Made by a program: the position numbers and the translations under genes
The notes under the pieces: model-generated
Seen by the model: the letters and a program-made list of their open reading frames with translations, nothing else
The model's database searches: none
Told to the model about the DNA's origin: nothing
Source of the DNA: Dehalococcoidia bacterium
Lineage (GTDB): Bacteria > Chloroflexota > Dehalococcoidia > E44-bin15
Length of the DNA: 45,623 nucleotides
Reading direction: 5' to 3'
NCBI GenBank assembly: GCA_014859165.1
Contig: JACUUT010000001.1
Span: 1 to 45,623, forward strand
In this document: one piece after another, positions 3,428 through 45,623 of the stretch
Layout of the letters: each line of letters begins with the position of its first letter
How positions within the stretch are numbered: the first letter of the stretch is position 1

Positions 3428-4222
3428 ATGAAAAGGCTCTCGTTTGTCATCCTGGCAGCGATCGTTCTTCTTGCCACAGTGTCTGCATTGCTTTTAACAG
3501 CATGCGTACCGTGGGGCGCCCCGGAAAATCTAATTCAAAACCCGGGCTTTGAAGAACCACCTGATTCTAATTGTACGGGAGCGCCGGATAACTGGACGTC
3601 TACCGGCAAGTACACGGGGCGTAGCACAGACGCTCACTCAGGCAACTGTTCCGCATATATATATGGAGCTAACAGTAGCTATACGCAAACCGTGCTCATA
3701 GAAGCGCTCGCAGCCTATAGGGTTGTGGCCTACATCAAAATCAGCAATGCTACTGGCAACGTGTCAGTAATGACCCAGGATTCGGATGGGGTGGACCTGC
3801 TAGAGGCCCCCCTTGTTTTGTCGGGTAATCAGACTACCTGGGCCAAATCGCTAATCTACCTTCCTACTCTACCTACGGCATATTATGCTATTATTACGCT
3901 ACGCATGGAGCCTGACGATGGTGCCATCGAGCCGAAGGCGTGGTTCGACGATATCCTGCTAGAAGAAAAAGGTGAATGCTTCATCGCCACCGCAGCCTAT
4001 GGCACACCGCTGGCAGGGGAGATAGAGGTGCTGCGCCAGTTCAGAGACCAATACCTGCTCCCCAACCCGGCGGGACGACTGCTTGTCTCCCTTTACTATG
4101 GAAGCAGCCCACCCCTGGCACATCTCATCAGCAAACATGACGGCCTCAAGGCTGTAACCCGGATGGCATTAGAGCCAATTATCTGGTTCTGCTCCAGGAT
4201 CACCACCCCGCCCGGTCCCTGA
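3428..4222 (+). CDS. secreted lipoprotein with CBM4/9-like (galactose-binding-like) domain and C-terminal CFIATAAYG...LRxFRD module
   Basis: AGGAGG sits 7 nt before the ATG at 3428. The signal peptide plus lipobox reads MKRLSFVILAAIVLLATVSALLLTAC. NLIQNPGFEE...AHSG...AWFDDILLEE is typical of CBM_4_9-type beta-sandwiches. The C-terminal CFIATAAYGTPLAGEIEVLRQFRDQYL motif recurs in secreted proteins; I recall the name CFI-box CTERM but am not certain of it. Confidence 0.7.
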   Translation: MKRLSFVILAAIVLLATVSALLLTACVPWGAPENLIQNPGFEEPPDSNCTGAPDNWTSTGKYTGRSTDAHSGNCSAYIYGANSSYTQTVLIEALAAYRVVAYIKISNATGNVSVMTQDSDGVDLLEAPLVLSGNQTTWAKSLIYLPTLPTAYYAIITLRMEPDDGAIEPKAWFDDILLEEKGECFIATAAYGTPLAGEIEVLRQFRDQYLLPNPAGRLLVSLYYGSSPPLAHLISKHDGLKAVTRMALEPIIWFCSRITTPPGP

Positions 4223-4225
4223 ACA

Positions 4226-4558
4226 TCAGGCTGTCTCGTGGGTGTTTGTGAAGGGGGCCTCATGTGCTATTTGCCCTTTTTTCTTCAGGGCTCCTCTCAC
4301 TGCCCTGGTATTCTCCTCGATATCCACCAGGACATAGATAATCCGCGAGAAAGCATAAAGGAATAGGAAGCTGAGGAAGCCCGAGATAATGCCCATGACA
4401 ATCATCACCGGGAGACCCAGGGCAGTCTCGGCATCCTCGGCACCTGCCGCAGTGACGCCGATTAGCAGGAAAAGCAAAAAGGTAAGTATCCCCACAATCC
4501 AGGCCAGGACCCCAATGATGCGACCGATAATGAGAAAGTTCCTGTATTTCACGCTCAC
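4226..4558 (-). CDS. small two-TM membrane protein (hypothetical)
   Basis: 110-aa ORF with two hydrophobic helices and then YVLVDIEENTRAV. GGAGG lies upstream, so the second GTG at 4552 is an equally good start. The promoter is TTGACA-N18-TAGGCT, with its -35 hexamer at 4638..4633 on the minus strand. Confidence 0.6.
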   Translation of the reverse strand: MSVKYRNFLIIGRIIGVLAWIVGILTFLLFLLIGVTAAGAEDAETALGLPVMIVMGIISGFLSFLFLYAFSRIIYVLVDIEENTRAVRGALKKKGQIAHEAPFTNTHETA

Positions 4559-4806
4559 CTCCTTCGATAAACTCAGGACAGGTCCTTTTTGGTATATGGC
4601 GGCTTATGCAAGCCTAGCATTTGTTCGTGGTGATTGTCAAGCCTGGAGCTCCCCGGCATAGGCAGATAGGGTTAACATCGCTCATCACCGCTCTTAGGTG
4701 TGATATTATACTATTTTAGCCTGATAGCTGCCTTCCCCCTTGCTCTCAAAGAGTCATCAGGGTAAGATAGGGGGGAGGATGATAGTATCAGGCGGGGGGA
4801 CTCAGT

Positions 4807-5595
4807 TTGCAGAAAGGAACAGTGATAACAGCCGGAGTAGACATAGGGGCCTCAACCTCCAAGGTCGTCCTTCTAAAGGATGCCCAAATCCTCTCTTATA
4901 GCATAATTGCCACCGCGGCGGAGAGCGCTTTTTCAGCCCGCCGCGCCATGGATGAGGCCCTCAAGGGGACAGACCTGCGCTCCGGCGATATTGGATGCAT
5001 CGTGGCAACCGGCTATGGAAGGGTAATCGTCCCCTTTGCCCATGAGACGATAACCGAGCTTTCCTGCCATGCCAGAGGGGCAAATTGGCTCTTTCCATCG
5101 GTGAGGACGATACTAGATATGGGAGGTCAGGACTGCAAGGCGATAAGGTGTGATGAGAGGGGGAGGCTTAAGAACTTTGTGATGAACGACAAGTGCGCCG
5201 CGGGAACAGGCAGATTCCTTGAGCTGATGGCGAGGGTGATGGAACTCCGCCTCGAGGATCTGGGCAGGCTGGCGCTGGAGGCAAGAGGAGAAATCAGGAT
5301 CGATAGCACCTGCACCGTCTTCGCCAAATCCGAGGTTTCCTCCCTGGTTCGAGAGGGAAGGGACAAAAGGGATATCCTTGCCGGGCTGCATGCTGCCATC
5401 GCTACAAGGGTTTACAATTTGCTCCGCGGTGTAGGAATAGAAAGGGATCTGGTGATCACCGGGGGAATCGCCAAGAATATCGGCGTGGTGCGCAAGGTTG
5501 AAGAGAAGGCTGGAATGGAGGTGCTGCTGCCGCCGGAGCCGCAGATTGTGGGGGCACTGGGGGCTGCCCTTTTTGCTCATGATAAGCTGCAATAA
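4807..5595 (+). CDS. BcrAD/BadFG/HgdC-family ATPase (activase-type, [4Fe-4S]-bridged) subunit 1
   Basis: Carries GVDIGASTSKVVLL (ASKHA fold) and the cluster cysteines in NDKCAAGTGRFLE and STCTVFAKSEV. Start is TTG 4807 (GGGGGGA SD) or GTG 4822. Confidence 0.9.
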   Translation: MQKGTVITAGVDIGASTSKVVLLKDAQILSYSIIATAAESAFSARRAMDEALKGTDLRSGDIGCIVATGYGRVIVPFAHETITELSCHARGANWLFPSVRTILDMGGQDCKAIRCDERGRLKNFVMNDKCAAGTGRFLELMARVMELRLEDLGRLALEARGEIRIDSTCTVFAKSEVSSLVREGRDKRDILAGLHAAIATRVYNLLRGVGIERDLVITGGIAKNIGVVRKVEEKAGMEVLLPPEPQIVGALGAALFAHDKLQ

Positions 5596-5627
5596 GGAGC
5601 ATCATTGAGGGGAGAGGAGGAAGCGAA

Positions 5628-6860
5628 ATGGTAACCTCAACTAGCGCCAAAAAGCATCTACAGACGACCCTAGAGGTCCCGGCCATGAGGAAGAAGTACT
5701 ATGCGGAGTCGCTGCAAAGGGCAGGGAAGAGGAAGGTGGCCTGGTGCAGCAACAACTTACCGTCGGAGATCATTGATGCTATGGACATAGATGCCGTCTA
5801 CCTGGAGAACTACGCCACGGTATGCGCCTCCAAGAGGCTTTCCTCGGGATTCTGCCGTGCCGGGGAGAAGGCGGGATTTTCCCAGGATGTCTGCGGCTAT
5901 GCCCGGCTCCTTATGGGCTACCTGCTGGGAGGGGAGGAGGCCCCCGAAGCCCCCTATGGAGGTCTGGCCAAGCCTGATTTCCTGGTGGTGAACAGCTTTA
6001 GCTGCGATTCCAGATTGGGCTGGTTTGCCACCATGAGCCGCACCCTGAACCTCCCCATGTATGTAATCGATGCCCCCTGTCAGCCTGAGGGGGGCTGCGC
6101 CGCGGTCGCCAATGCCCTTTATACCGAGGAACAACTGGAAGGGTTTGTCGCCTTTCTAGAGGAGCAGACGTGCACCAGACTAAACCGGGATCGGCTGAGG
6201 GAGAAGATCGCTCTCGCCCGCCGCTCCCACGATATCCAGGTGGAGATTTATGAGATGCGAAAGGCCATCCCCTCCCCCCTTGGCGCAGGCGATGCCTATA
6301 CCGTAGTCTGGCCCGGCCTCTATATGGCGGGCACCAAGGAGTGCGACGAATTCTATGATAGGCTGCGCGCCGAGGTCAGGGAGCGCATCGAAAAGGGGGT
6401 TGGGATCGTCTCCGAGGAGAAATTTAGGCTTCTCTGGAGCGGGCTTCCCTTCTGGTATAACATGGCGCTGCTGAACTATTTTGAGGACTTCGGCGGCGTG
6501 GTTGCCATTGAGAATATCTACTTCCGCCATGAAAAATCCCTTCCCCCCCAGCATGACGACCCAATAAAGGACATGGCCATCTCCTCCGCCATCAGCAGAC
6601 CCTACGCCGCGGGGATTGAGGAGCGCATTGAATTGACCCTGGATATAGTGAGGGATTATAAGGTGGACGGGGTGATCCTATCCTACAATCCCTCCTGCCG
6701 GCTGATGTATATCCTTCAACCGGAGCTCAAAAACGCCCTCGATAAGCACGGGATACCGAACCTGAGCATCGAGTGTGATATGGCTGATGAGCGAACCTAT
6801 GCCGAGGGTCAGGTGAAAACGAGACTGGATGCCTTCATTGAGAGGTTGCTTGCTAGGTGA
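5628..6860 (+). CDS. 2-hydroxyacyl-CoA dehydratase / benzoyl-CoA reductase family subunit (HGD-D domain, HgdA/BcrB/BadE-like)
   Basis: 410 aa with VAWCSNNLPSEIIDAMDIDAVY...VCGYARL...FSCDSR, the typical HGD-D family pattern. A GGAGAGGAGG SD is present. Confidence 0.85.
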   Translation: MVTSTSAKKHLQTTLEVPAMRKKYYAESLQRAGKRKVAWCSNNLPSEIIDAMDIDAVYLENYATVCASKRLSSGFCRAGEKAGFSQDVCGYARLLMGYLLGGEEAPEAPYGGLAKPDFLVVNSFSCDSRLGWFATMSRTLNLPMYVIDAPCQPEGGCAAVANALYTEEQLEGFVAFLEEQTCTRLNRDRLREKIALARRSHDIQVEIYEMRKAIPSPLGAGDAYTVVWPGLYMAGTKECDEFYDRLRAEVRERIEKGVGIVSEEKFRLLWSGLPFWYNMALLNYFEDFGGVVAIENIYFRHEKSLPPQHDDPIKDMAISSAISRPYAAGIEERIELTLDIVRDYKVDGVILSYNPSCRLMYILQPELKNALDKHGIPNLSIECDMADERTYAEGQVKTRLDAFIERLLAR

Positions 6861-34340: not shown

Positions 34341-36296
34341 TTAGACCTGGCGCCCCAGCTCAGCGCCCTCGCCGATAGCCTCCATAGCGTCTCGTGGCTC
34401 CACACAGTCCCCTATGGCATGAACCTCGACGATATCCTTCAGCTCCTCAATCAACCTGTTCTGTGATACTGAGCCCACTGCGAGGACCACGGTATCTGCT
34501 TTCAAGAAGGTGAGCTCCCTGGCCTGCACCACCATGACGCCGCCCTCTCTTATCTCCCGCACCGGCGAGAAAGGGTGTATGTAGACGCCATGCTCGATCA
34601 GCCTGTCCTTTAGGGTCATCTTGATGTTACGTTCAATCCACCTCCCATTGCGGCCAAGTTCGCGTTCGGTGACCAGGGAAACCTTCTTACCCTGCTTCGC
34701 CAGCGAGAGGGCCGTCTCCATGCCCAGATAGCGTCCCCCGACTACGACTACTGTGTCGCCAACCTTGACCCTGCCGGCGACCACATCCGCCGCCTGGACC
34801 ACATTGGGTCCATCGGCACCGGGCACATCCAGAACCCGTGGTGCGGCCCCGGTGGCCACAATGGCGACATCTGGCTTGAGCTCTCGCACCAGCTCGGCAG
34901 TCACCTCTTTGTTCAGGATAACCTCAACCCCGGTTCGCGCCAGGTCGTGAAGCATACGCTGGGTCACGGTGTTATATATGTCCTTGCCCTCCCCCATTGC
35001 AGCGATGTTCCATTGCCCACCGAGCTTGTCGCTCTTTTCGTAGAGCGAGACCCGGTGCCCCCGTTCAGCGAGGGTTATGGCAGCCTCCATGCCGGCAAGC
35101 CCACCACCGATGACCATCACCCTCTTCGGCGAGGTTGTGGGCTTTATTTCGAATTCCTCCTCCCTGAAGAGCGCCGGGTTGACGGTGCAGGCGAAGGTAA
35201 TGCCATGCTTTAAGACCCTCTGTCGCCACGCCACATCCCAGCAGTTGTTGCAATAGATGCACTTACGAATCTCGTCGAATCGTCCTTCCCTCGCCTTGTT
35301 GGGTAGCTGTGGGTCTGCCATCAGGGCACGGCCCATGGCGATGAAGTCTGCCTTTCCCTCCTCGAGTATCCTCTCAGCGAGGAAGGGATCGCCGATCTTG
35401 CCCACCGCTATGACAGGGACATCGACTGCCCTTTTAACCGCTTCAGCCAGCGGCACTAGCGGCGGCTCCGCAAATAGGTAGCTGGGATTTGTGTAGTTGG
35501 TGGACTCCATGGCGCCAGCGGTTATATGCAGGGCATCGGCGCCGGCTTTGACAAAGAGCGGCGCAATACGAACGATGTCATCTATGGTTATCCCGCCCTC
35601 GATGAACTCGCTGCCGCTAACCCTGAAGCTGATGGGGAAATCAGGACCTACCTTCTCTCTGACGCGTGAGATGACCTCGCAGGCAAAGCGGGCTCTATTC
35701 TCCACACTCCCCCCGTACTCATCGGTGCGGCGATTGGTCAGCGGAGATAACCATTGACATATCCCATAGCCATGGCCGCCTAGGATCTCCACCAGGTCAA
35801 AGCCCGCCTCTTTTATGCGCCTGGCACCCTCGCCAAAGGCTTCCACCAGGCGTTCGATGTCCTCCTTGGTCGCTTCGCGCGGGGCCACGTTGTTCCATAC
35901 CCACGGTATTGCCGAAGGCCCAACCACATCTATCTCCTCGGGGTGCTCATAGTAGGTGCGCCATTGACTCAGTGCCTTTCCGTGATGCACCACCTGGAGG
36001 GCTGCCTTGGCGCCATGCCGATGGATGATGTCACTAACCTCCCGCAGCATCGGAATATATTTATCATCCCAGTTGGCCGCCCGAACCGGTGCCCGCCCTT
36101 CATAGAGGACGCAACTGGAGCCGCAGTTGACCAGGCTCACCCCTCCTTTAGCCTTTTCCCCGGCCTGGCGTATCCCATGAGGGGTGAAAATCCCATTTAG
36201 ATCGCACAGAGCGCCCAGCGGGGCGCACAGCAGCCTGTTCTTAAGTTCAAGCTTGCCTATCTTTCCCGGCTCAAAAAGTTTGGTTAGTTGCTTCAC
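34341..36296 (-). CDS. OYE-domain + [4Fe-4S] + FAD/NAD(P)-binding reductase (2,4-dienoyl-CoA reductase FadH-like architecture)
   Basis: The N-terminus LFEPGKIGKLELKNRLLCAPL is an OYE TIM barrel. CIYCNNC forms the cluster motif. VMVIGGGLAGMEAAITLAERGHRVSLYEK and VVVVGGRYLGMETA are Rossmann folds. 651 aa. Confidence 0.85.
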   Translation of the reverse strand: MKQLTKLFEPGKIGKLELKNRLLCAPLGALCDLNGIFTPHGIRQAGEKAKGGVSLVNCGSSCVLYEGRAPVRAANWDDKYIPMLREVSDIIHRHGAKAALQVVHHGKALSQWRTYYEHPEEIDVVGPSAIPWVWNNVAPREATKEDIERLVEAFGEGARRIKEAGFDLVEILGGHGYGICQWLSPLTNRRTDEYGGSVENRARFACEVISRVREKVGPDFPISFRVSGSEFIEGGITIDDIVRIAPLFVKAGADALHITAGAMESTNYTNPSYLFAEPPLVPLAEAVKRAVDVPVIAVGKIGDPFLAERILEEGKADFIAMGRALMADPQLPNKAREGRFDEIRKCIYCNNCWDVAWRQRVLKHGITFACTVNPALFREEEFEIKPTTSPKRVMVIGGGLAGMEAAITLAERGHRVSLYEKSDKLGGQWNIAAMGEGKDIYNTVTQRMLHDLARTGVEVILNKEVTAELVRELKPDVAIVATGAAPRVLDVPGADGPNVVQAADVVAGRVKVGDTVVVVGGRYLGMETALSLAKQGKKVSLVTERELGRNGRWIERNIKMTLKDRLIEHGVYIHPFSPVREIREGGVMVVQARELTFLKADTVVLAVGSVSQNRLIEELKDIVEVHAIGDCVEPRDAMEAIGEGAELGRQV

Positions 36297-36298
36297 GA

Positions 36299-37093
36299 CT
36301 ACCTTCCCTTGAATTCGGGGGTTCTCTTCTCTATAAAAGCCGCAACCCCTTCCTTCACATCCTCGCTATTAATGCAGAATTGCTGGAGATAGGTCTCAAA
36401 CTCCAGCGTCTCCTCCAGGCTTAAAAGCTGGGCCCGGTATATCTGTCGCTTTGTCATTTGAGCGGCGATGGGAGCTTGCTTTGTCAGCTTGGCGGCGAAG
36501 CTCCTTGCCTCCTTCATCAGCTCATCGAAGGGCACAACACGGTTCACCAGCCCGATGCGCTCAGCCTCCCGCGCATCCAAGAGATCGCCGCTGAGGCATA
36601 TCTCCAGGGCCTTGGGCAGCCCGACGAGGCGGGGTAGGAAGTAGGCCACCCCTGTATCCAGGGCGAGCCCCCTCCTGATAAATACCGGGCCGAATCTGGC
36701 GTTCTCCGATGCTATCCTGAAATCGCAGGATAGAGCCAGACCGAAGCCTCCCCCGGCAGCGACGCCATTCACCGCGGCGATGGACGGCTTGTCCAGCCGG
36801 TGAACTCGGGCAGCCAGCCATCCCAGAGGGCTGAAGCGATACCTTTCCCCCAGTCCGGCATCGGCGGGGTTCTGGGATGCCTGTAGCACCCAGTCATTGC
36901 CGGTGCAGAAGCCGCGGTCGCCGGCACCGGTCAGAATCAACACCCTGATCTCCGGGTCGTCCGCCGCCTCCTCGATGGCCCTAGCTATCCCAAATCTCAT
37001 TTTGGGGCTATAGGCATTCATCCTCTCCGGCCTATTTAGCGTAATAGTAGCAATCCCCTCCTCTTTCTCGAATATGATGTCTTCGTAATCCAT
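36299..37093 (-). CDS. enoyl-CoA hydratase/isomerase (crotonase) family protein
   Basis: ATITLNRPERMNA...LTGAGDRGFCTGND...AAVNGVAAGGGFGLALSCDFRIA. Confidence 0.9.
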   Translation of the reverse strand: MDYEDIIFEKEEGIATITLNRPERMNAYSPKMRFGIARAIEEAADDPEIRVLILTGAGDRGFCTGNDWVLQASQNPADAGLGERYRFSPLGWLAARVHRLDKPSIAAVNGVAAGGGFGLALSCDFRIASENARFGPVFIRRGLALDTGVAYFLPRLVGLPKALEICLSGDLLDAREAERIGLVNRVVPFDELMKEARSFAAKLTKQAPIAAQMTKRQIYRAQLLSLEETLEFETYLQQFCINSEDVKEGVAAFIEKRTPEFKGR

Positions 37094-37181
37094 GCTCTAC
37101 CTCCTCTGTATTAGTATAATTCACCTTCGCAGATTCTGAAAGGGAAAAGCCGCGGCACTGCCCCAGGTTTGAAAATGAGTG

Positions 37182-37976
37182 CTATCTCCCCTTCCAGGTA
37201 GGTGGCCTCTTCTCCACGAAGGCTTTGAACCCCTCCATTATGTCCTCAGTGCCCATTAGGTTGTGAATTACATGGTCTGTTAGAGACATGGCATCAGGGC
37301 GGCTCATATCCCTGCCTCTCTGGAGCAGCTCCTTTACTGCTCTTATTGCGAGAGGACTTTGTTGACAGATCTTCTCCGCCATCTCTGTTGCCGCAGGGAG
37401 AAGTTGCTCTGGGGAAACTATCCGGTTCACCAAGCCCACCTCGTAGGCCCTCTGAGCGCTGAGCCTATCGGTGGTAATGAGCATTTCATAGGCGACCCCT
37501 CGGGGGATATAGTGCTGGAAAAGCGCGGTAAATGTCGCCGGCATGCCCAACCTCGGCTCCGGAATCCCAAATTGAGCACTCTCAACGGCAATCCTTATAT
37601 CGCATTCCAGCGCCAGCCACAAGCCTCCACCAAGACAATATCCGTTGATGGCTACAATAATGGGTTTTGAGACCTCATAGCTTGCAGGAGATGCACGGAA
37701 AGCGGGCGCCTCTTTCAGCAAAGAGCCCACCCTTGTCGGACGGATGCTCCCCATCGCCTCAAACATCTCCAAGTCCGATGCGATATCGACCCCGGCGCAA
37801 AATGCCCTCCCCGCGCCTGTGAGGATACCCACCCACACCTCCTCATCGTCCCTGAAATCCACCCATGTCTTCGCTAACTCATTGACAAGCTCAGGATTGA
37901 GGGCGTTCAACTTCTCAGGACGATTCAGGGTAATATTGGCGATCCTACCCTTTTTCTCATAGATAACCAAAGACAT
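37182..37976 (-). CDS. enoyl-CoA hydratase/isomerase (crotonase) family protein
   Basis: ANITLNRPEKLNAL...LTGAGRAFCAGVD...VAINGYCLGGGLWLALECDIRIA. Confidence 0.9.
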   Translation of the reverse strand: MSLVIYEKKGRIANITLNRPEKLNALNPELVNELAKTWVDFRDDEEVWVGILTGAGRAFCAGVDIASDLEMFEAMGSIRPTRVGSLLKEAPAFRASPASYEVSKPIIVAINGYCLGGGLWLALECDIRIAVESAQFGIPEPRLGMPATFTALFQHYIPRGVAYEMLITTDRLSAQRAYEVGLVNRIVSPEQLLPAATEMAEKICQQSPLAIRAVKELLQRGRDMSRPDAMSLTDHVIHNLMGTEDIMEGFKAFVEKRPPTWKGR

Positions 37977-38186
37977 AAATCACCTCCTCGTTACTTATTG
38001 AACATTGGACAGAGTGACGTTAGCATAGCTGCTGCTGGTAGTCAAGGAAAAGGGCTTCGCCCGCCCTAGCACCTGCACGTCCATCTCCTCATAGTGCGCA
38101 TGGGAAATTATTGACTTCTTACGCCATTTAGTGCACAGTATTTGTGTTAACTATTCCTATAGCTATAATTTCAAAAGGAGGTTTCT

Positions 38187-38615
38187 ATGGGCGCTAGTGA
38201 AGCGAAGAAGAAGGTGCCCATAAAAGAGGGCCTGTTTAAGGTGCATACCGATGAAGAGGAGGGCTATCTTATTGGCAGCAGGTGCAAAAAGTGCGGTGAG
38301 TATTTTCACCCTAAAAGGGTGGTCTGTGCCAATTGTTATAGCGAGGACATGGATGAGGTTGCCCTCAGCACTCGAGGAAAGATCTTCACCTATACCATTG
38401 CCCGAACAAGCTACCCGGGAACGCCGTTAACCGCGCCTTTCATCACCGCCCACGTGGAGCTGCCGGAGAAGGTGAGTGTTATAAGTCTCATAACCGATAT
38501 CGACCTTGATAAGGTAAAGGTCGGCATGGAGGTGGAGCTTTATTTCTGGAAGGCGCGGGAGGATGGTGAGGGCAACGAGGTGATGGCTTACGCCTTTAGA
38601 CCGGTCTCAAACTAG
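38187..38615 (+). CDS. Zn-ribbon/OB-fold protein (DUF35 family), thiolase partner
   Basis: The rubredoxin-like zinc ribbon is GSRCKKCGEYFHPKRVVCANC, followed by an OB fold. A TATAAT -10 (38163..38168) and AAAGGAGG lie upstream. Confidence 0.85.
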   Translation: MGASEAKKKVPIKEGLFKVHTDEEEGYLIGSRCKKCGEYFHPKRVVCANCYSEDMDEVALSTRGKIFTYTIARTSYPGTPLTAPFITAHVELPEKVSVISLITDIDLDKVKVGMEVELYFWKAREDGEGNEVMAYAFRPVSN

Positions 38616-38616
38616 A

Positions 38617-38632
38617 CCCCGATTTATCGGGG
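38617..38632. repeat. intercistronic REP-like hairpin CCCCGATTTATCGGGG
   Basis: Starts 2 nt after the DUF35 stop. Its 3' arm runs into the GGAGGAGG SD of the thiolase gene. Confidence 0.8.
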
Positions 38633-38646
38633 GAGGAGGCAACAGG

Positions 38647-39777
38647 ATGGCAGAAAAAGAGGTTGTGATACTAGGTGTTGGGATAACCAGGTTTGGTAGG
38701 GTTACCGGGAGGAATCCAGTGGAGATGGCCCGAGAGGCAGGGCTGATGGCCCTTAAGGACGCGGGAGTCGATTTTAGAGATATTCAAGCGGGCTTTTGCG
38801 CCCATGTTAATCAGCCGATGGGCACTGGGGCGGATTGCTTTGCTGAGCTGGGGATGACGGGCATCCCGGTGACCAATGTGGAGGTAGCCTGTGCCAGCCA
38901 GTCCCGTGGTGTGATGCTGGCTGGGGATATGATAGCGGCTGGCATCTACGATATGGCCTTGGTTATCGGCGTGGAGAAGATGCCTCGGGGCATGGTGCCC
39001 TTGGGGGGGGAGCTGAGCGATATGTCTTATGCCTTCCTTATGGGCTTGATGCCTTTCCCTGGGACCTATGCTATGACGGCCCAAAGACACATGCACACTT
39101 ACGGGACAAAGCCAGAGCATTTTGGTAGGGCTGCGGAGAAATCTCACAGAAATAGCAGACTTAATCCCAATGCTACATACCAACAGGTATATACCCTAGA
39201 GGAGATAATGAGTTCCAGGATGATTGCCGATCCCATCACCATGTATATGTGCTCAGCCAATGCCGATGGCGCCACAGCAACGGTGGTCTGTTCCAGGGAG
39301 AAGGCGAAAAAGTATACTACTAGGCCGGTGCTCCTGGTGGGTTGGGCTGGAGGGACCCCGATATATGAAAAGGGGGAGCCAATGCTTGCCGAGGGCCCTA
39401 CTGAATTACTGGGCAAGAAGGTTTACGAGATGTCCGGCCTGGGGCCTAAAGATGTCGATGTCGCCCAGGTTCATGATGCCTTCAGCCCCGGGGAGATCTT
39501 TGCCATCGAGGAGCTGGGGTTCTGCCCCAAGGGTGAAGGTGGCCCCTTTGTCTGGGGGGGCAATACTGAGATAAATGGCAAGATCCCGGTCAATACCGAT
39601 GGGGGGCTGGTCAGTTGCGGGCATCCCATAGGTGCTACCGGCGGGCGTATGATCGCTGAGCTTTCCTGGCAGCTCAGAGGAATGGCTGGGCCAAGACAGG
39701 TGTCTGGCAATCCCAAGGTAGCTCTGCTCCATAATCAAGGTCTGGGCGGCACGAATGTGATGATTTTCAAGATGTAG
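38647..39777 (+). CDS. thiolase-fold protein (SCP-x/DUF35-associated acetyl-CoA acetyltransferase-like)
   Basis: VVILGVGITRFGR...VEVACASQS...GVEKM...CGHPIGATGGRM. 376 aa. Confidence 0.9.
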   Translation: MAEKEVVILGVGITRFGRVTGRNPVEMAREAGLMALKDAGVDFRDIQAGFCAHVNQPMGTGADCFAELGMTGIPVTNVEVACASQSRGVMLAGDMIAAGIYDMALVIGVEKMPRGMVPLGGELSDMSYAFLMGLMPFPGTYAMTAQRHMHTYGTKPEHFGRAAEKSHRNSRLNPNATYQQVYTLEEIMSSRMIADPITMYMCSANADGATATVVCSREKAKKYTTRPVLLVGWAGGTPIYEKGEPMLAEGPTELLGKKVYEMSGLGPKDVDVAQVHDAFSPGEIFAIEELGFCPKGEGGPFVWGGNTEINGKIPVNTDGGLVSCGHPIGATGGRMIAELSWQLRGMAGPRQVSGNPKVALLHNQGLGGTNVMIFKM

Positions 39778-39881
39778 GCCGCATAAAGGCAAAATAAGGG
39801 GGTTTAAAATGACGCCACGCGCCTTCCGTTGCTACCTTCGCCTCCGGAAAGTATAGTGAGGATGAAAGGCGGTGTGTATAG

Positions 39882-40070
39882 ATGAATAAGGTCGAATCGA
39901 AAGCTGAGGTCTTTTTGTGGGCATTACAATCGCTTTCCAAAGCGGAGAGGGAGGCGGTTATCAGCCGCCTGCTGGAAGACCCTGAATTAAGAGAGGATAT
40001 GCTCGACATTGCCCTTATACAGCAACGGAAGGGCGAACCATCGCGCCCCTTCAGGGAATACCTGCGATAG
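39882..40070 (+). CDS. orphan type II antitoxin-like small protein
   Basis: 62 aa: MNKVESKAEVFLWALQSLSKAEREAVISRLLEDPELREDMLDIALIQQRKGEPSRPFREYLR. I recognise this pattern as small antitoxins encoded next to RelE/ParE-type toxins. No such toxin gene follows. Confidence 0.5.
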   Translation: MNKVESKAEVFLWALQSLSKAEREAVISRLLEDPELREDMLDIALIQQRKGEPSRPFREYLR

Positions 40071-40233
40071 GTGTAAACGCAAGTTTCGCACCCGCAATCT
40101 GCAAATTCACCACAAGGACAGAGACCCTGAGAATAATAGACTTAAAAATCTAAGGGTGCTGTGTAAACGTCATCATATAGACCTGCACAGAAAGGCTAAA
40201 AGGAGAAAAAACCTAAGTCAACCTAAAAGATAA
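40009..40233 (+). pseudogene. minimal HNH nuclease motif ORF, probably a 5'-truncated remnant
   Basis: CDRCKRKF..RNLQIHHKDRDPENNRLKNLRVLCKRHHIDLH forms an intact CxxC...HH...N...CxxH beta-beta-alpha-Me finger. Everything N-terminal of CDRC is just the alternate frame of the antitoxin-like ORF. TTG start, no SD. Confidence 0.4.
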
Positions 40234-40630
40234 GTCTCCAGTGTTCTGAGGATATATCATCTTTAAATTTCTTAAGACAATTCTTAAGTTGTGTAAAGCA
40301 GTTTGCTGAAAGCGAACTTATCACACTTATTTTCTTGGACAGAGCACCTCTCAATAACTCTTCAGTGGATATTTCAATAATCTGTGGTAATTGTATAAAG
40401 GTATTTAACGAAAAACACTCCTGCCAATTCAGGGGTACAAAGAATACCTTCTTTCGTGGGTTACAACCCTCACTGACTCCTGCATACCGTCGTGGTTGAG
40501 ATGTGGTTTTTAGAACAAGACTAGGTAAATTAGCATCCGCTTCATTTAAGATGATAAAAAGTTTATCTCTTACCGAACCGTCTTCAAAGCAGAAATCTTT
40601 ATAATGGAGAACTTGCCCAGCTTGTGGCAT
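40223..40630 (-). CDS. unassigned 135-aa protein, candidate toxin partner of the Panacea/DUF4065 gene (possible MazF/PemK-like SH3 fold)
   Basis: Starts 16 nt downstream of the DUF4065 gene on the same strand, in the AT-rich islet. The pattern GQVLHYKDFCFEDGSVRDKLFIILNE...LVLKTTSQ...FIQLPQIIEISTEELL...ISSLSANCFTQLKNCL loosely parallels MazF (G.i..v.f....G.E..K.RP.vVls...v.P.TS...Q...id..rl...G.l). Confidence 0.55.
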   Translation of the reverse strand: MPQAGQVLHYKDFCFEDGSVRDKLFIILNEADANLPSLVLKTTSQPRRYAGVSEGCNPRKKVFFVPLNWQECFSLNTFIQLPQIIEISTEELLRGALSKKISVISSLSANCFTQLKNCLKKFKDDISSEHWRLIF

Positions 40631-40645
40631 ATTACTATACCTAAA

Positions 40646-41233
40646 TTACTTCGTTGGACTGAGACCAAAATTACGCACAGCTTCCTGATGTTCCTTAAGC
40701 GACTCTTTAGCATCATCTAAACTAACTTCCGATTTATCATCAATGCCAAGAAGATAGTCTATAGGTTTATTTTCACCACTCTGTTTTAGTGTAATATCCC
40801 AAGGCTGTTTAGGTAAGTGAGTAACCTCCGTCATGTCCTTAAATCTAGCATCTTTATAAATAAACGCCAAATCCCCTAAGATTTTTATTTCTCTAGGTGT
40901 AAACACAGACAAGTCTGGTTTTCCTATAGCTTTAATTTGGAATCCTCTACGGCTTAAGGTGAGGTCGTCCTCGATTGGTAACAATGCCACTTTACCTACA
41001 AAATCACCAGGTACATCACCATCTTTTATCTCTAGCCAAAAATCTCTAGGTACTGGGCCTTTTTTAAAGGTAAAATACTCCAGTCCAATAGATGGGTATC
41101 CTGTCTGTTTAAAATGTGTGAAGTCGAGGAAGTAAAGAAGTTTCGAGAGTTTGCCTAAACCCACATATTTAGTATTAACTGCAAAAAACAGTACAGCGTT
41201 GAGTAGTTTCCTTCTATAGATATTGCTCTGCAT
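40646..41233 (-). CDS. Panacea-domain (DUF4065, SocA/GepA/PanA-like) antitoxin-type protein
   Basis: LLNAVLFFAVNTKYVGLGKLSKLLYFLDFTHFKQTGYPSIGLEYFTFKKGPVP fits the DUF4065 signature (KL.KLLYF.D......G.P..G..Y.....GPV). 195 aa. Confidence 0.75.
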   Translation of the reverse strand: MQSNIYRRKLLNAVLFFAVNTKYVGLGKLSKLLYFLDFTHFKQTGYPSIGLEYFTFKKGPVPRDFWLEIKDGDVPGDFVGKVALLPIEDDLTLSRRGFQIKAIGKPDLSVFTPREIKILGDLAFIYKDARFKDMTEVTHLPKQPWDITLKQSGENKPIDYLLGIDDKSEVSLDDAKESLKEHQEAVRNFGLSPTK

Positions 41234-41389
41234 TTCTTACTGCCCTAAGATATTATACTACTAACCGTCAAGAGAGATGCAAGATTATAACACCATTATT
41301 GCTTCGTGCCTCGCTATCAACTTAAACCGAACAGAACCCAAGTGTACAATAAGCAAAAAACAAAATATAATCAGCAGTGGCACTACAAG

Positions 41390-42121
41390 CTAGAGAAGCT
41401 TCTCACCTAGCTTCTCCGCCATCATCTGCGCATTCCTAACCGCATACCCCTCGGCATCGTTATTGAAGTAGATATAGACTGTGTCCAGGTTCCTCGCTAG
41501 CTCCGCTATCTTCCTCGCCCAGTCTTCAAGCTCCTCATCGGTGTAGCAGCTAAAGTAGAGACCGCTTGAGCCGTGAAAGCGGATGTAGGAAAAATCCGCC
41601 GTTGCCTCAAGCGGGCAGGGGAGACCTGGCATATCGAAAACGCAGAAGCCCACATTGTGCTTGCGTAATATCTCAAAAACACCCTCATCAAGCCAGGACT
41701 CATGGCGGAATTCGATGACATGGCGAAGCCCACCGGGGAGTAGCGAGAGAAAGCTGTCAAGCCTCTCATCGTTGCGGTGCATATTCGGTGGGAGCTGATA
41801 GAGAAGGGGGCCCAGCTTCTGATTGAGATGTCGCGCCAGCGACAGGAAGGTCGCCACCGGCTCTTCGACATCCTTGAGCCGTTTGATGTGGGTTATGAAC
41901 CGGCTCACCTTGACAGCGTAAAGGAAGCCATCGGGGGAGGTATCACGCCAGTTTGAAAAAGCCTTCTCCGATGGAAGGCGATAGAAGCTGTTATTGAGCT
42001 CCACCGTAGGGAAATGCCCGGTGTAAAACTCCAGCCACTTTGACTGCGCCAGCTTCGGGGGATAAAAGACATCCCGCCAGTGGGGGTAGACCCAGCCACT
42101 GGTGCCGATATAATACTTCAT
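41390..42121 (-). CDS. DUF72 (UPF0759) family protein
   Basis: MKYYIGTSGWVYPHWRDVFYP....S.WLEFYTGHFPTVELNNSFYRLP. Confidence 0.9.
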   Translation of the reverse strand: MKYYIGTSGWVYPHWRDVFYPPKLAQSKWLEFYTGHFPTVELNNSFYRLPSEKAFSNWRDTSPDGFLYAVKVSRFITHIKRLKDVEEPVATFLSLARHLNQKLGPLLYQLPPNMHRNDERLDSFLSLLPGGLRHVIEFRHESWLDEGVFEILRKHNVGFCVFDMPGLPCPLEATADFSYIRFHGSSGLYFSCYTDEELEDWARKIAELARNLDTVYIYFNNDAEGYAVRNAQMMAEKLGEKLL

Positions 42122-42142
42122 CCTCCACCCCCATCACTTGTT

Positions 42143-42535
42143 TCAGGCTACCCGCTTCCCCCTAGCGCCAAGGTTATAGATCTCCTCCACCTTCACCTTA
42201 ACCGCCGCCTTAGGCGGACCGGGCGTCTTAAGCATCTCCGCCAGCTTCTTAGCGCCCTCGTAGAGCTCTCCTTTGGTAACAAGCTCCGCCTTGCCCACAA
42301 AGCGGTAGCCCTGCATCTTGCTCGCATCGACCACAGCGATGGCCACCCTGGGATTCTTCTGCAGATTCTCCCAGGTGCGCCCCCCGGTCAATTCGTAGAA
42401 CACAATATGCTCATCGTCCAGCACATGGGTGCTCCGCTTGGGCCCGATATTGGGCACCCCATCAGGGCTAGCGGTGGCGATAAACGGCTGCTGGCTAGCC
42501 ACTAGAGCCTTCATCTCCTCGGTTAACTTCGCCAT
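42143..42535 (-). CDS. pyridoxamine 5'-phosphate oxidase-family FMN-binding split-barrel protein
   Basis: MAKLTEEMKALVASQQPFIATASPDGVPNIGPKRS...VFYELTGGRTWENLQKNPRVAIAVVD. GGAGGGG SD before the ATG at 42535; the track start is 42613. Confidence 0.8.
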   Translation of the reverse strand: MAKLTEEMKALVASQQPFIATASPDGVPNIGPKRSTHVLDDEHIVFYELTGGRTWENLQKNPRVAIAVVDASKMQGYRFVGKAELVTKGELYEGAKKLAEMLKTPGPPKAAVKVKVEEIYNLGARGKRVA

Positions 42536-42572
42536 TTTGCCCCTCCTTTCCTCGACTGTTATAATCAACCCG

Positions 42573-42601
42573 ATTCTATTCCCTCCACGGCTTGCTGTCA
42601 A
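42573..42601 (-). promoter_or_regulatory. promoter TTGACA-N17-TAGAAT
   Basis: On the minus strand, TTGACA is at 42601..42596 and TAGAAT at 42578..42573. Confidence 0.55.
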
Positions 42602-42632
42602 CCTTGATGCCACAGTGCATTTGTGTTAGATT

Positions 42633-43298
42633 TTGACAGCAGTAAGTGATAGGTCAATCGTGAAGCTGGAGAAAGACCGAGAAAAGCTAATTGAGCATAT
42701 TCGTCGCGAGATCAGCGATGAGCGGGTGCTTAATGCTATGGCGCGTGTGCGCCGGGAGCTTTTCATACCCAGCACTAGTCGCCACCTTGCCTATGAGGAT
42801 CGCCCCTTGCCGATTGGGGAAGGGCAAACGATCTCACAGCCCTTCATCGTTGCCCTGATGACTCAGGCTCTGGAGCTTGTAGGCACGGAGAAGGTTCTGG
42901 AGTTAGGCACGGGGAGTGGCTATCAGGCGGCGATCCTCGCCGAGCTGGCACGAGAGGTGATCACCTTGGAGCGACTTCAAAAGCTTGCCAACAAGGCGAG
43001 ACGCACCCTTAAGAAGCTGGCCTACACCAATGTTCAAGTTCATCTTGCTTCAAGAACCCTGGGCTGGCGAGCCGAGGCACCCTATGACGCTATCATGGTA
43101 ACGGCCGCAGCACCAAGGGTCCCCAAAGAGCTTATCGACCAGCTTGTCATAGGTGGTCGTTTGGTGATCCCCGTTGGCTCCCGCTGGGAGCAGGATCTCT
43201 TGCAGGTGATCAAGCAGAAGGAAGGATACACCGCTAAGAATTTGACCCCTTGCCGCTTCGTCCCCCTCATCGGTGAGGAGGCCTGGAGCGAGGAGTAG
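42633..43298 (+). CDS. pcm: protein-L-isoaspartate O-methyltransferase
   Basis: VLNAMARVRRELFIP...GEGQTISQPFIVALMTQALEL...VLELGTGSGYQAAILAEL...RLVIPVG. The start may instead be GTG 42660. Confidence 0.9.
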   Translation: MTAVSDRSIVKLEKDREKLIEHIRREISDERVLNAMARVRRELFIPSTSRHLAYEDRPLPIGEGQTISQPFIVALMTQALELVGTEKVLELGTGSGYQAAILAELAREVITLERLQKLANKARRTLKKLAYTNVQVHLASRTLGWRAEAPYDAIMVTAAAPRVPKELIDQLVIGGRLVIPVGSRWEQDLLQVIKQKEGYTAKNLTPCRFVPLIGEEAWSEE

Positions 43299-43318
43299 GA
43301 ATCCGTCCATCGACCCCT

Positions 43319-43861
43319 CTAATCAGACTTTTTCCCCTTGAGCCTATCGATGAGCCTGGAGGCCTCCTGCTTGGTGAGCTCGGCGTGAAGCTTGCCGTAG
43401 GCTTTCTTGGCATGCTCGTTCATCTGCTCCTCACTAAGGCCGTGCTCCTCCTGGGCGATAGTATAGATGGCCTTGACCTGCGCCGCGGTAGCCGGGGAAC
43501 GCTTCACCGGGGCATCCACAGGCTTATCGTGGAAATCGAAGTCGTCACAGAATTGCGTGCCATAGCCCAGCGCAGCGCAAGCCCGGCCCAGCGCCTTTGT
43601 CTCCGCTTTCTCTATGTAATCGCCAAAGTCGCTCACTGTCTCGCTACCCCATCCTGTAGCCTCCCCTCCATCGGGGAGGGTGATCTTCGCCTTAAAGAGG
43701 GCCATGCCCCCCTCGTGCTTCTCAAGCTCAGTGATAATCACCGCATCGGGATGCTCGGTGCGCAGCCACAAAATCCGCCACTTCACCTCAAGATAATCCT
43801 TCCCATCCAGCTTCATCAGATACCTGCTTGCCCTAAAGCCCTTATCATTCTTCTCCACCAT
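43319..43861 (-). CDS. Rad52/Sak-like single-strand-annealing-type protein (tentative) with C-terminal helical domain
   Basis: YLEVKWRILWLRTEHPDAVIITE...ALFKAKITLPDGGEATGWGSETVSDFGDYIEKAETKALGRACAALGYGTQF resembles the beta-beta-beta-alpha core and the 'A.T.A.KRA...G.G' helix of Rad52-family SSAPs. AGGGAGG SD. Confidence 0.45.
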   Translation of the reverse strand: MVEKNDKGFRASRYLMKLDGKDYLEVKWRILWLRTEHPDAVIITELEKHEGGMALFKAKITLPDGGEATGWGSETVSDFGDYIEKAETKALGRACAALGYGTQFCDDFDFHDKPVDAPVKRSPATAAQVKAIYTIAQEEHGLSEEQMNEHAKKAYGKLHAELTKQEASRLIDRLKGKKSD

Positions 43862-43890
43862 TTTGCCTCCCTTGATGGAACATATGTTCT

Positions 43891-43919
43891 ATTATAGAGC
43901 AGTCTTCTAGATTTGTCAA
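43891..43919 (-). promoter_or_regulatory. perfect consensus promoter TTGACA-N17-TATAAT
   Basis: On the minus strand, TTGACA is at 43919..43914 and TATAAT at 43896..43891, about 30 nt upstream of the 43861 ATG. Confidence 0.7.
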
Positions 43920-43990
43920 TAGTTTTTGAGCCGAGCTTTTAGAACAAAAACTTGCCCCGGTTGGGAAAAGAGTGCTATACTAACGAAGAG

Positions 43991-45457
43991 ATGGACTACG
44001 AAACGATCATCGGCCTAGAGGTTCATGCTCAGCTACTGACAAAGAGCAAGATGTTCTGCCGCTGTAGCGCCGACTATGCCAATGCAGCGCCCAATACATA
44101 CGTATGCCCGGTTTGCCTGGGCATGCCTGGCGTCCTCCCCCTCATAAACCAGCAGGCCGTGGAGTATACAGTGATGACAGCCCTGGCCCTAAACTGCACT
44201 ATCCCCGAATATTCCAAGTTCGACCGAAAGAACTATCCCTATCCCGACCTTATGAAAGGCTATCAAATCTCTCAATACGATGCCCCTCTCGGTATCGGTG
44301 GATGCATAGACATCGATATCGATGGACGAAAGAAGAGGATCGGGATCATTCGGGTCCATCTTGAGGAGGATACGGCAAAGCTAATTCATCATACCACCCT
44401 CGAGGGGGAATCCTATAGCCTGGTGGATGTCAATCGCGCCGGGGTCCCTCTTATGGAGGTCGTGAGTGAGCCCGACATGCGCTCCCCTGAGGAGGCGAGG
44501 CAGTACCTGATGAAGCTGCGCACCATCCTCCAGTTCCTCGGCGTCTCCAGCGGCAATATGGAGGAGGGGAGCTTCAGGTGCGACGCCAATATCAGCACTC
44601 GCCCCTCAGGCAGCACCGATTCGGTGAAGGTCGAGGTTAAGAACATGAATAGCTTCAAGGCTGTCTATCGCGCTCTGGAATATGAGGAGGAACGGCAGCG
44701 GAGAGCGATGGGAAAAGGGGAGCGCCTCATCCAGGAGACAAGGGGCTGGGTTGAGGAGAGAGGGGTCACGGTATCGCAGCGGAGTAAGGAATATGCCCAT
44801 GACTATCGATATTTCTCTGAGCCCGATCTTCCACCATTGGTGTTCAGTCGCCTCTGGGTGGAGGAACTCAGATTGCGCCTGCCCGAGCTTCCCGAGGAGA
44901 GGCGGGATAAATTCATAAGCCAGTATGGCCTGTCCCGCTACGATGCCAGCTTGCTAACCGCCTCTAAAACGATGGCAGATTATTTCGAAGCCTGTGTGAG
45001 ACTGAGCGCAAAGGCCCAGGTCGAAAAAGTCGAAAAAGGGGCCAAGGCAGTGAGCAACTGGCTTCTGGGCGATTTCACCAGGCTTCTCCATGCCACGGAC
45101 ACCGAGATCGAAGATTCCAGGGTTACCCCGGAGCATCTCGTGGGGATGCTGGAGCTGATTGACTGTGGCACGCTTAGCGGTGCCGCAGCTAAGGCGGTTT
45201 TTGAGGAGATGTTCAATGGGGGCAGGCATGCTAAGGATATCATCACTGAGAGAGGGCTTACCCAGATCAGCGATGCCCGGGAGATAGAGGGTATCGTGGC
45301 TCAGGTAATCGCTACCAATACTCAGGCGGTGGCCGATTTCAAGAAGGGGAAGGAGCAGGCGCTAACCTTCCTTGTGGGGCAGGTGATGAGAGTGACCAAG
45401 GGGCGGGCCAATCCCTCTCTGGTAAATAAACTCTTGAAGGAAAAGCTGGAAAACTAA
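43991..45457 (+). CDS. gatB: Asp-tRNA(Asn)/Glu-tRNA(Gln) amidotransferase subunit B
   Basis: [24 protein letters not shown].......[16 protein letters not shown]. The C-terminal YqeY-like tail reads [23 protein letters not shown]. The track start (TTG 43952) is less likely. Confidence 0.95.
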
Positions 45458-45459
45458 TC

Positions 45460-45623
45460 ATGCAGACCTATCTCAATATCGCTCAGATTATAGTAGCCAT
45501 TGTATTGATTGCTGCTGTCCTGTTTCAGGTGAGGGGAGGGGGTTTGGGGGGCATCTTCGGCACGCAGACGGGCATGTACCGCACCAAACGGGGTATAGAA
45601 AAGACCTTGTTTCGATTCACCAT
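45460..45623 (+). CDS. secG: preprotein translocase subunit SecG (3' partial, runs off the window)
   Basis: MQTYLNIAQIIVAIVLIAAVLFQVRGGGLGGIFGTQTGMYRTKRGIEKTLFRFT is the canonical SecG pattern. It is not in the track because it is truncated. Confidence 0.8.
   Translation, partial: MQTYLNIAQIIVAIVLIAAVLFQVRGGGLGGIFGTQTGMYRTKRGIEKTLFRFT

Follow-up and report, generated by a model that had tools for sequence, protein, structure and literature searches.

The 45,623-nt stretch of Dehalococcoidia bacterium DNA analysed here (contig JACUUT010000001.1 of assembly GCA_014859165.1; hereafter "the window") carries on its minus strand two adjacent genes that in all likelihood constitute a horizontally acquired, bicistronic type II toxin-antitoxin (TA) module of the PanA-PanT kind, whose toxin is a divergent MazF-fold protein and probably an endoribonuclease. 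An earlier reading of the letters of the window (the original prediction) had proposed an AT-rich islet with a Panacea (DUF4065) gene coupled to an unassigned 135-aa partner. Both minus-strand open reading frames (ORFs) lie exactly where they had been placed, from 41233 to 40646 (195 aa) and from 40630 to 40223 (135 aa). The elements of the module are:

40646..41233, minus strand: panA, encoding the 195-aa antitoxin, with the Panacea domain at residues 29-145 and an acidic C-terminal extension at residues 146-195.
40223..40630, minus strand: panT, encoding the 135-aa toxin candidate, with a predicted MazF/PemK/CcdB-type fold and a C-terminal helical extension.
40631..40645, minus strand: panA-panT spacer, from the panA stop codon to the toxin ATG, with an AGG-type ribosome-binding site.
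41234..41273, minus strand: panA 5' leader, common at the nucleotide level to some homologous modules, with a TATAAT box at 41257-41252.

Homologues of the two genes are found side by side across distantly related bacteria. At 17 of 17 distinct assessable loci, with toxin identity down to about 32%, a Panacea gene directly precedes the toxin gene, between unrelated flanks. A PanA homologue is located just before, or overlaps, the toxin start at loci L001-L018, L020-L024, L105 and L106 (L019 is cut by a contig end), and the linked loci come from Chloroflexota, Aerophobetes, Zixibacteria, Pseudomonadota, Desulfobacterales and others. In eight loci with close homologues, representing four unrelated contexts, the toxin gene starts 16 or 7 nt after a SocA_Panacea gene, with no other gene between them. 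A PanA hidden Markov model was run against eleven loci from metagenome-assembled genomes (MAGs) of Chloroflexota, Dehalococcoidales, Aerophobetes, Zixibacteria, Pseudomonadota, Hatepunaea, Desulfobacterales and Binatia; at every one that includes upstream sequence a PanA homologue ends just before the toxin start. The toxin genes of two distant members (~33% identity) likewise come after a Panacea gene, whose end they overlap by 4 or 14 nt. The reciprocal check, starting from PanA homologues, recovered the toxin downstream at +16 nt, including one toxin gene missed by the gene caller, and PanA similarity drops in parallel with toxin similarity across loci. With a Panacea gene directly upstream in every assessable homologous locus, the 135-aa protein is a conserved partner in antitoxin-then-toxin order, as had been proposed.

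The spacer between the two genes measures 16 nt (by gene-call convention) and contains a ribosome-binding site, so panA and the toxin gene are probably co-transcribed. The same 16-nt spacing recurs in L001, L004, L007, L105 and L106, and other copies of the module show a 7-nt gap or a 4- or 14-nt overlap. Because a consensus scan found no canonical minus-strand promoter at the panA leader, 41234..41273 is described here only as a putative promoter/leader of panA; the promoter and terminator scans returned nothing significant, with three promoter-like sites (3.8 expected) and 0 terminators. Blastn homology between loci extends from 41220-41273 (0-40 nt upstream of the panA start) to ~40227 at the toxin stop codon. 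Since nucleotide homology is bounded by panA and the toxin gene, the conserved, mobile unit consists of exactly these two genes. Their G+C content is below that of the flanks in 15 of 15 other loci. A tblastn search of phage and plasmid collections with the toxin found nothing, and the module is present on one IMG/VR contig only, whose neighbouring genes are mostly unannotatable.

These data bear on whether the two genes encode a TA system at all. The Panacea and 135-aa proteins might instead form a non-toxic mobile-element pair, such as a regulator or sensor associated with phages together with its partner, a reading that we consider very unlikely. It is consistent with the Joint Genome Institute name for PanA homologues ("uncharacterized phage-associated protein"), with the presence of an integrase, ISL3 transposase or terminase-like gene near some copies of the module and of one copy on an IMG/VR contig, and with a published survey in which no toxin partner could be predicted reliably for 1004 Panacea proteins and several PanT candidates proved non-toxic (Kurata et al, PMC8832971). 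Against it stand the classic toxin fold of the 135-aa partner (see below), the canonical TA layout with a short spacer or overlap, the antitoxin first and an acidic/basic polarity, and the movement of the two genes as an autonomous unit between unrelated chromosomal sites. The two genes also decay together in L016 (2591-3191), where PanA is split over two overlapping frames and only residues 1-63 of the toxin are matched before the end of the contig; this locus reflects either joint pseudogenisation of the two genes or an error of assembly.

The 195-aa protein passes the Pfam model PF13274 (SocA_Panacea) with an E-value of 5.7e-13 and 50.2 bits (gathering cut-off 25.7), the match spanning residues 29-145 and profile positions 1-112 of 113; the DUF4065/Panacea assignment made in the original prediction is thereby borne out. 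The protein also matches phrog_1281 and has 520 homologues, of which the top 120 listed are 193-218 aa long, all with PF13274. The identical protein is named "MAG: SocA family protein" at NCBI. It scores 20.4 bits against the SocA equivalog model NCBIfam NF047745, far below the cut-off of 190 and over residues 28-71 only, and on this sequence comparison it is judged to have SocA's domain but to be no SocA orthologue. PanA lacks an N-terminal accessory domain and ends in a conserved C-terminal extension of ~50 residues (146-195), which is acidic (isoelectric point (pI) 4.7, net charge -4). An AlphaFold2 model of moderate confidence (predicted local distance difference test (pLDDT) 75, predicted TM-score (pTM) 0.77) folds the extension into a β-hairpin (147-161) and a helix (172-188). 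A fold search of this model against solved structures in the PDB gave no credible match (best E 0.37), and a search of the PDB sequences with the PanA sequence found nothing. The ratio of non-synonymous to synonymous substitution rates (dN/dS) of panA is 0.07-0.09, indicating purifying selection.

Searches with the Pfam, NCBIfam and PADLOC models gave no match for the 135-aa protein, in agreement with the earlier statement that it could be placed in no named family. Its close homologues number 152 (59-73% identical; 128-148 aa, mostly ~137), not one of which carries a functional name, and an exhaustive profile search recovered 555 clusters (at 50% identity) at E<=1e-3, 201 of them at E<=1e-10. 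The family is dominated by metagenomic sequences and almost confined to uncultured lineages. A profile of the distant subfamily run against a word-indexed database returned four proteins, all already known; ten distant clusters carried neither names nor accessions, and no paper describing the family was found in the literature. The panT gene is under purifying selection as well, with a dN/dS of 0.15-0.19 in comparisons with five homologues restricted to unsaturated synonymous sites. Its product is basic (pI 8.6, compared with 4.7 for the PanA tail). All 131 family sequences examined share three residues, T43, C56 and C118. C56 follows a conserved barrel Gly in a GC[NH] motif and C118 sits in the C-terminal helix in an NC[LI]K motif; the close subfamily has two further conserved cysteines, C72 and C111. 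The invariant cysteines might form a disulfide or a metal site.

Structure prediction places the 135-aa protein in the MazF/CcdB superfamily. The AlphaFold2 model, built from 33 sequences, is confident (pLDDT 92.6, pTM 0.85) and shows a seven-stranded β-core followed by helices at residues 89-97, 109-120 and 128-134. In a Foldseek search of the PDB, ranks 1-8 were taken by MazF (M. tuberculosis MazF-mt3, S. aureus, E. coli, D. radiodurans and K. pneumoniae), and the top 14 hits comprised MazF structures followed by CptN and CcdB, with probabilities of 0.99-1.00. TM-scores normalised to target length were 0.51-0.74 (0.64-0.74 for MazF and CcdB) at sequence identities of 6-14%. In the viral Foldseek library, the top five matches were annotated as "Endoribonuclease", "PemK-like protein" and "PemK/MazF family toxin". 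According to this model, the 135-aa protein has a MazF/CcdB-type SH3-like β-barrel fold. The loose likeness to MazF, PemK and CcdB noted originally is thus supported by structure in both libraries, whereas the profile-profile support for it is weak.

This weaker support comes from hhalign comparisons of the toxin family with a reference of five MazF/EndoA/Kid/ChpBK sequences, which were verified by their matches (1e-42 to 1e-49) to PDB chains of MazF, EndoA and Kid. The alignments are co-linear over 102-103 columns, with E-values of 1.5e-4 (probability 52%) and 6.6e-5 (probability 64%), and place T43, present in all 131 sequences, opposite T52 of E. coli MazF. The "GD/GQ" of strand 1 and a "Q-I-x-x-I" strand align with MazF too. 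R29 and T52 are the catalytic residues of E. coli MazF. K23 is found in 123 of the 131 toxin sequences, one residue past the R29 column, and judging from this alignment it may substitute for the MazF Arg. The Pfam PemK_toxin model gives weak sub-threshold matches in 1-2 of 56 and 131 relatives (best E 0.0024). The toxin family extends beyond MazF by ~30 C-terminal residues, which form two helices without a MazF counterpart.

A series of observations weighs against a MazF-like RNase module. The toxin column opposite MazF R29 is variable (G 55, S 19, A 14, K 13 and R 9 of 131). The 135-aa protein itself is not matched by PF02452 (PemK_toxin), and the toxin family profiles detected no MazF among the PDB sequences at E<=10. 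Of the long β1-β2 loop, which in MazF shapes the substrate site, only a few residues are left, and the invariant C56 and C118 are without a MazF counterpart. CcdB, a gyrase poison, has the same fold, and the fold alone therefore leaves the target open. Furthermore, some predicted MazF-like PanT were not toxic in an E. coli screen (Kurata et al, 2022; PMC8832971), and the acidic tail of PanA is only possibly the neutralising element.

Several of these observations also fit a genuine PanA-PanT pair whose MazF/CcdB-fold toxin is no RNase but poisons gyrase like CcdB or has a new activity centred on Cys56/Cys118. We regard this as unlikely. In its favour, CcdB (2vub) is among the fold matches and reaches the highest target-normalised TM-score (0.74), the canonical MazF Arg column is not conserved, both the two invariant cysteines and the C-terminal helical extension are missing in MazF, and a conserved fold need not mean a conserved function (Ernits et al, PMC10440598). 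The top-ranked matches in both structure libraries, in contrast, are MazF/PemK RNases, an invariant Thr lies opposite the catalytic Thr52 of MazF, the sole recurring Pfam hint is PemK_toxin, and validated MazF-like PanT proteins inhibit translation (PMC8832971). A superficial likeness to the C-terminus of CcdB is provided by an HW(K/R)LIF motif, but this motif is confined to the close subfamily and not conserved family-wide. In CcdB, the C-terminal residues Trp99-Gly100-Ile101 are essential.

The other structural neighbour that would imply a different kind of system is CptN (4rmo; E 0.06, probability 0.99), a match that fits a type III arrangement similar to ToxIN or CptIN, with a MazF/ToxN-fold protein neutralised by a repetitive RNA and not by PanA. 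This arrangement is improbable in the extreme: what lies upstream of the toxin is in every case a Panacea gene, which encodes a protein and is strongly constrained by purifying selection. An RNA antitoxin of the type III kind was ruled out, there being no tandem repeats in 39700-41500 and, as direct repeats, only two-copy chance matches.

Given a PanA-PanT pair with a MazF-like RNase, the module would work as follows. The upstream gene would produce the PanA antitoxin, a single Panacea domain with its acidic C-terminal extension of ~50 residues, and the downstream gene the basic 135-aa toxin, a β-barrel of the MazF/PemK type (CcdB/MazF superfamily) with two C-terminal helices. The toxin would arrest growth, most likely through MazF-like sequence-specific, ribosome-independent RNA cleavage, with the invariant Thr43-Ser44 and the conserved Lys23 replacing Thr52 and Arg29 of MazF in catalysis. 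PanA would neutralise the toxin by direct binding, either through the Panacea core or by inserting its acidic C-terminal hairpin and helix into the RNA-binding groove. Loss or triggering of PanA would free the toxin and result in addiction-type stabilisation and/or abortive infection. RNase activity is the least secure of these steps, given the variable Arg column and the fold common to the toxin and CcdB. A role in phage defence is plausible for TA modules generally and has no direct support here, as neither PanA nor the toxin matches a defence system in PADLOC-DB v2 and the searches of phage and plasmid collections yielded no relatives.

Precedent for such a pair exists. Kurata et al (2022, PNAS; PMC8832971) described 88 PanT clusters, of which T5, T6 and T25 are EndoA/PemK/MazF-like. 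The MazF-like PanT of Pseudomonas moraviensis and Bifidobacterium ruminantium proved to be toxic inhibitors of translation that PanA neutralises, and a stable PanA-PanT complex has been demonstrated for the P. moraviensis pair (PMC8832971). Stand-alone Panacea neutralises directly, and appended C-terminal helices can be the neutralising element (Ernits et al, 2023; PMC10440598). The suggestion that the islet carries a candidate new pair needs correcting: PanA together with a MazF-fold toxin has already been listed (T5, T6, T25), with two examples validated (Kurata et al, 2022; PMC8832971). Since this pairing is already validated, the 135-aa proteins represent a new sequence family of a known kind.

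The module resembles the MazF-like PanA-PanT systems of Kurata et al (PMC8832971) in several respects. Each has a stand-alone "noNTD" Panacea antitoxin encoded first and a small MazF-fold toxin immediately downstream, with a short gap or overlap. The toxins share a frequent "hypothetical" annotation, with the likeness to MazF visible only by profile or structure methods, and a mobile, patchy distribution. The differences lie in the toxin sequence. Whereas T5 reaches 99.5% HHpred probability and T25 matches the CDD PemK model, the 135-aa family is without a curated model and has a weak profile link to MazF; it has extra C-terminal helices with an invariant Cys and is without a conserved catalytic Arg column. 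The family may nevertheless coincide with one of the 88 published PanT clusters, T5, T6, T25 and the large, unnamed T1 being known here by accession only.

With MazEF, PemIK and Kid-Kis, the module has in common the toxin fold and topology, an invariant Thr corresponding to Thr52 of MazF, a basic toxin facing an acidic C-terminal antitoxin segment, and an antitoxin-first operon. In those systems, however, the antitoxin is a MazE/AbrB-fold protein or PemI and not a Panacea protein, and the toxin differs from MazF/PemK in its invisibility to PF02452, short β1-β2 loop, variable Arg29 column and ~30 extra C-terminal residues. SocAB of Caulobacter (type VI) shares the Panacea domain (PF13274) of its antitoxin, but the partner here is not SocB-like and the SocA equivalog score is 20.4 compared with 190. 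SocA acts as a ClpXP adaptor in the degradation of SocB, while PanA proteins generally form stable, type II-like toxin complexes (PMC8832971). CcdAB, finally, has a toxin of similar fold (CcdB 2vub, target-length TM-score 0.74) with no detectable sequence relationship, a different antitoxin family and a rank below the MazF matches.

What appears to be new here is a widespread, unannotated MazF-fold toxin lineage with atypical conserved residues, apparently dedicated to Panacea antitoxins. For a "hypothetical protein" family of at least 555 clusters (50% identity) without a curated model, the analysis thereby provides a fold, a partner and a probable function; it widens the PanA partner network to uncultured phyla (Dehalococcoidia and other Chloroflexota, Zixibacteria, Aerophobetes and Desulfobacterota) and contributes a MazF-fold lineage whose active site is atypical and which has a pair of conserved cysteines. 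As neutralisation of MazF-like toxins by Panacea has been published, the gain lies in annotation and in a candidate for enzymology and not in a new principle. A more far-reaching proposal, which we think rather unlikely, would see in the family an uncatalogued, Panacea-dedicated lineage of MazF-fold PanT with a rewired site (Lys23/Thr43-Ser44), a Cys56-Cys118 pair bridging the barrel to a new C-terminal helix, and a target or regulation unlike that of MazF (for instance redox- or metal-gated), neutralised by a new acidic PanA element and serving abortive infection in uncultured anaerobes such as Dehalococcoidia.

The composition of the islet is consistent with acquisition from elsewhere. G+C content is 0.33-0.40 across ~40100-41400 and 0.50-0.60 on either side (200-nt sliding windows), and the two-gene module (40223-41233) has a G+C content of 0.372, compared with 0.545 in the remaining window. 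The sharp drop in composition reported in the original prediction is thus confirmed, while its left border at 39778 was too generous because the trough spans only ~40100-41400 and the stretch 39778-40222 has a G+C content of 0.479. The islet had also been described as free of tRNA and integrase genes, and this holds: the search of 36000-45623 for tRNAs and tmRNAs found none, and the neighbouring ORFs scanned matched no integrase family. The genes and ORFs next to the module are:

40009..40233, plus strand: 74-aa HNH-motif ORF (HNH_3, E 2e-6), a neighbour outside the conserved module.
39882..40070, plus strand: 62-aa ORF without a family match, a neighbour outside the module.
38647-39777, plus strand: flanking thiolase gene.
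41390-42121, minus strand: flanking DUF72 gene, accompanied by a PNPOx-family gene.

Among 80 metagenomic loci with DUF72 orthologues (69-86% identical), none has PanA, the toxin, the HNH ORF or the 62-aa ORF, which indicates a lineage-specific acquisition at a variable junction. Five of these 80 loci keep the synteny PNPOx-DUF72...thiolase-OB-fold, and in all five the gap contains a 258-aa enoyl-CoA hydratase gene (with one extra ORF in L037). This gene lies directly downstream of the thiolase gene in L026, L036, L037 and L038/L039, where the window has the islet; the sole enoyl-CoA hydratase gene nearby in the window encodes 264 aa and lies on the opposite side of the operon (37182-37976, minus strand). 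Given this difference in hydratase placement, the fatty-acid-type operon has been rearranged where the TA module sits. As the syntenic relatives have the hydratase gene at this place, neither a clean insertion scar nor a duplicated target site can be read, and direct repeats at the borders were not found above chance. The low G+C content and the absence from the 80 DUF72 loci are signs of mobility and of a recent horizontal acquisition of the module by this Dehalococcoidia genome.

The neighbouring "TA/nuclease debris" of the original prediction is real in so far as an HNH-motif ORF and an overlapping 62-aa ORF are present, but both lie outside the conserved module. The 74-aa ORF converges on the toxin gene, overlapping its 3' end by 11 nt, and contains a complete small HNH motif (CxxC...HH...N...HH...H). 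It matches ZorE-like HNH (E 1e-6) and homing-endonuclease HNH models in PADLOC as well as HNH PHROGs, and it is missing from all other PanAT loci. The 62-aa ORF runs into the beginning of the HNH ORF in a different reading frame, and the two are seen only in this genome and in its identical Logan contig (L024), on which the gene caller reported the 62-aa ORF and left the HNH ORF uncalled. They could be a second small cargo with a homing-type nuclease or a frameshifted remnant.

Gene calling affects the toxin gene as well. The identical toxin protein is recorded only from the Logan assembly and the adjacent PanA at NCBI, so that the public MAG record seems to lack an annotation of the toxin gene; L106 likewise contains an intact but uncalled copy. 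The AT-rich toxin gene appears to be repeatedly missed by gene callers.

Further genes were noted beside other copies of the module. The distant copy in L020 adjoins a phage-type integrase and a canonical MazE/PemK pair (3636-4754 and 5531-6112), and the other distant toxin copy lies near an ISL3 transposase. In L105, smpB (1865-2326) stands beside the module, and in L007 (1864-3261) and L008 the neighbour is a 465-aa protein with a weak match to the terminase large subunit. In the window itself, a 180-aa ORF (43319-43861, minus strand) between a PIMT-like methyltransferase gene and gatB has sub-threshold matches only, to DUF3072 and to the immunity protein family Imm72.

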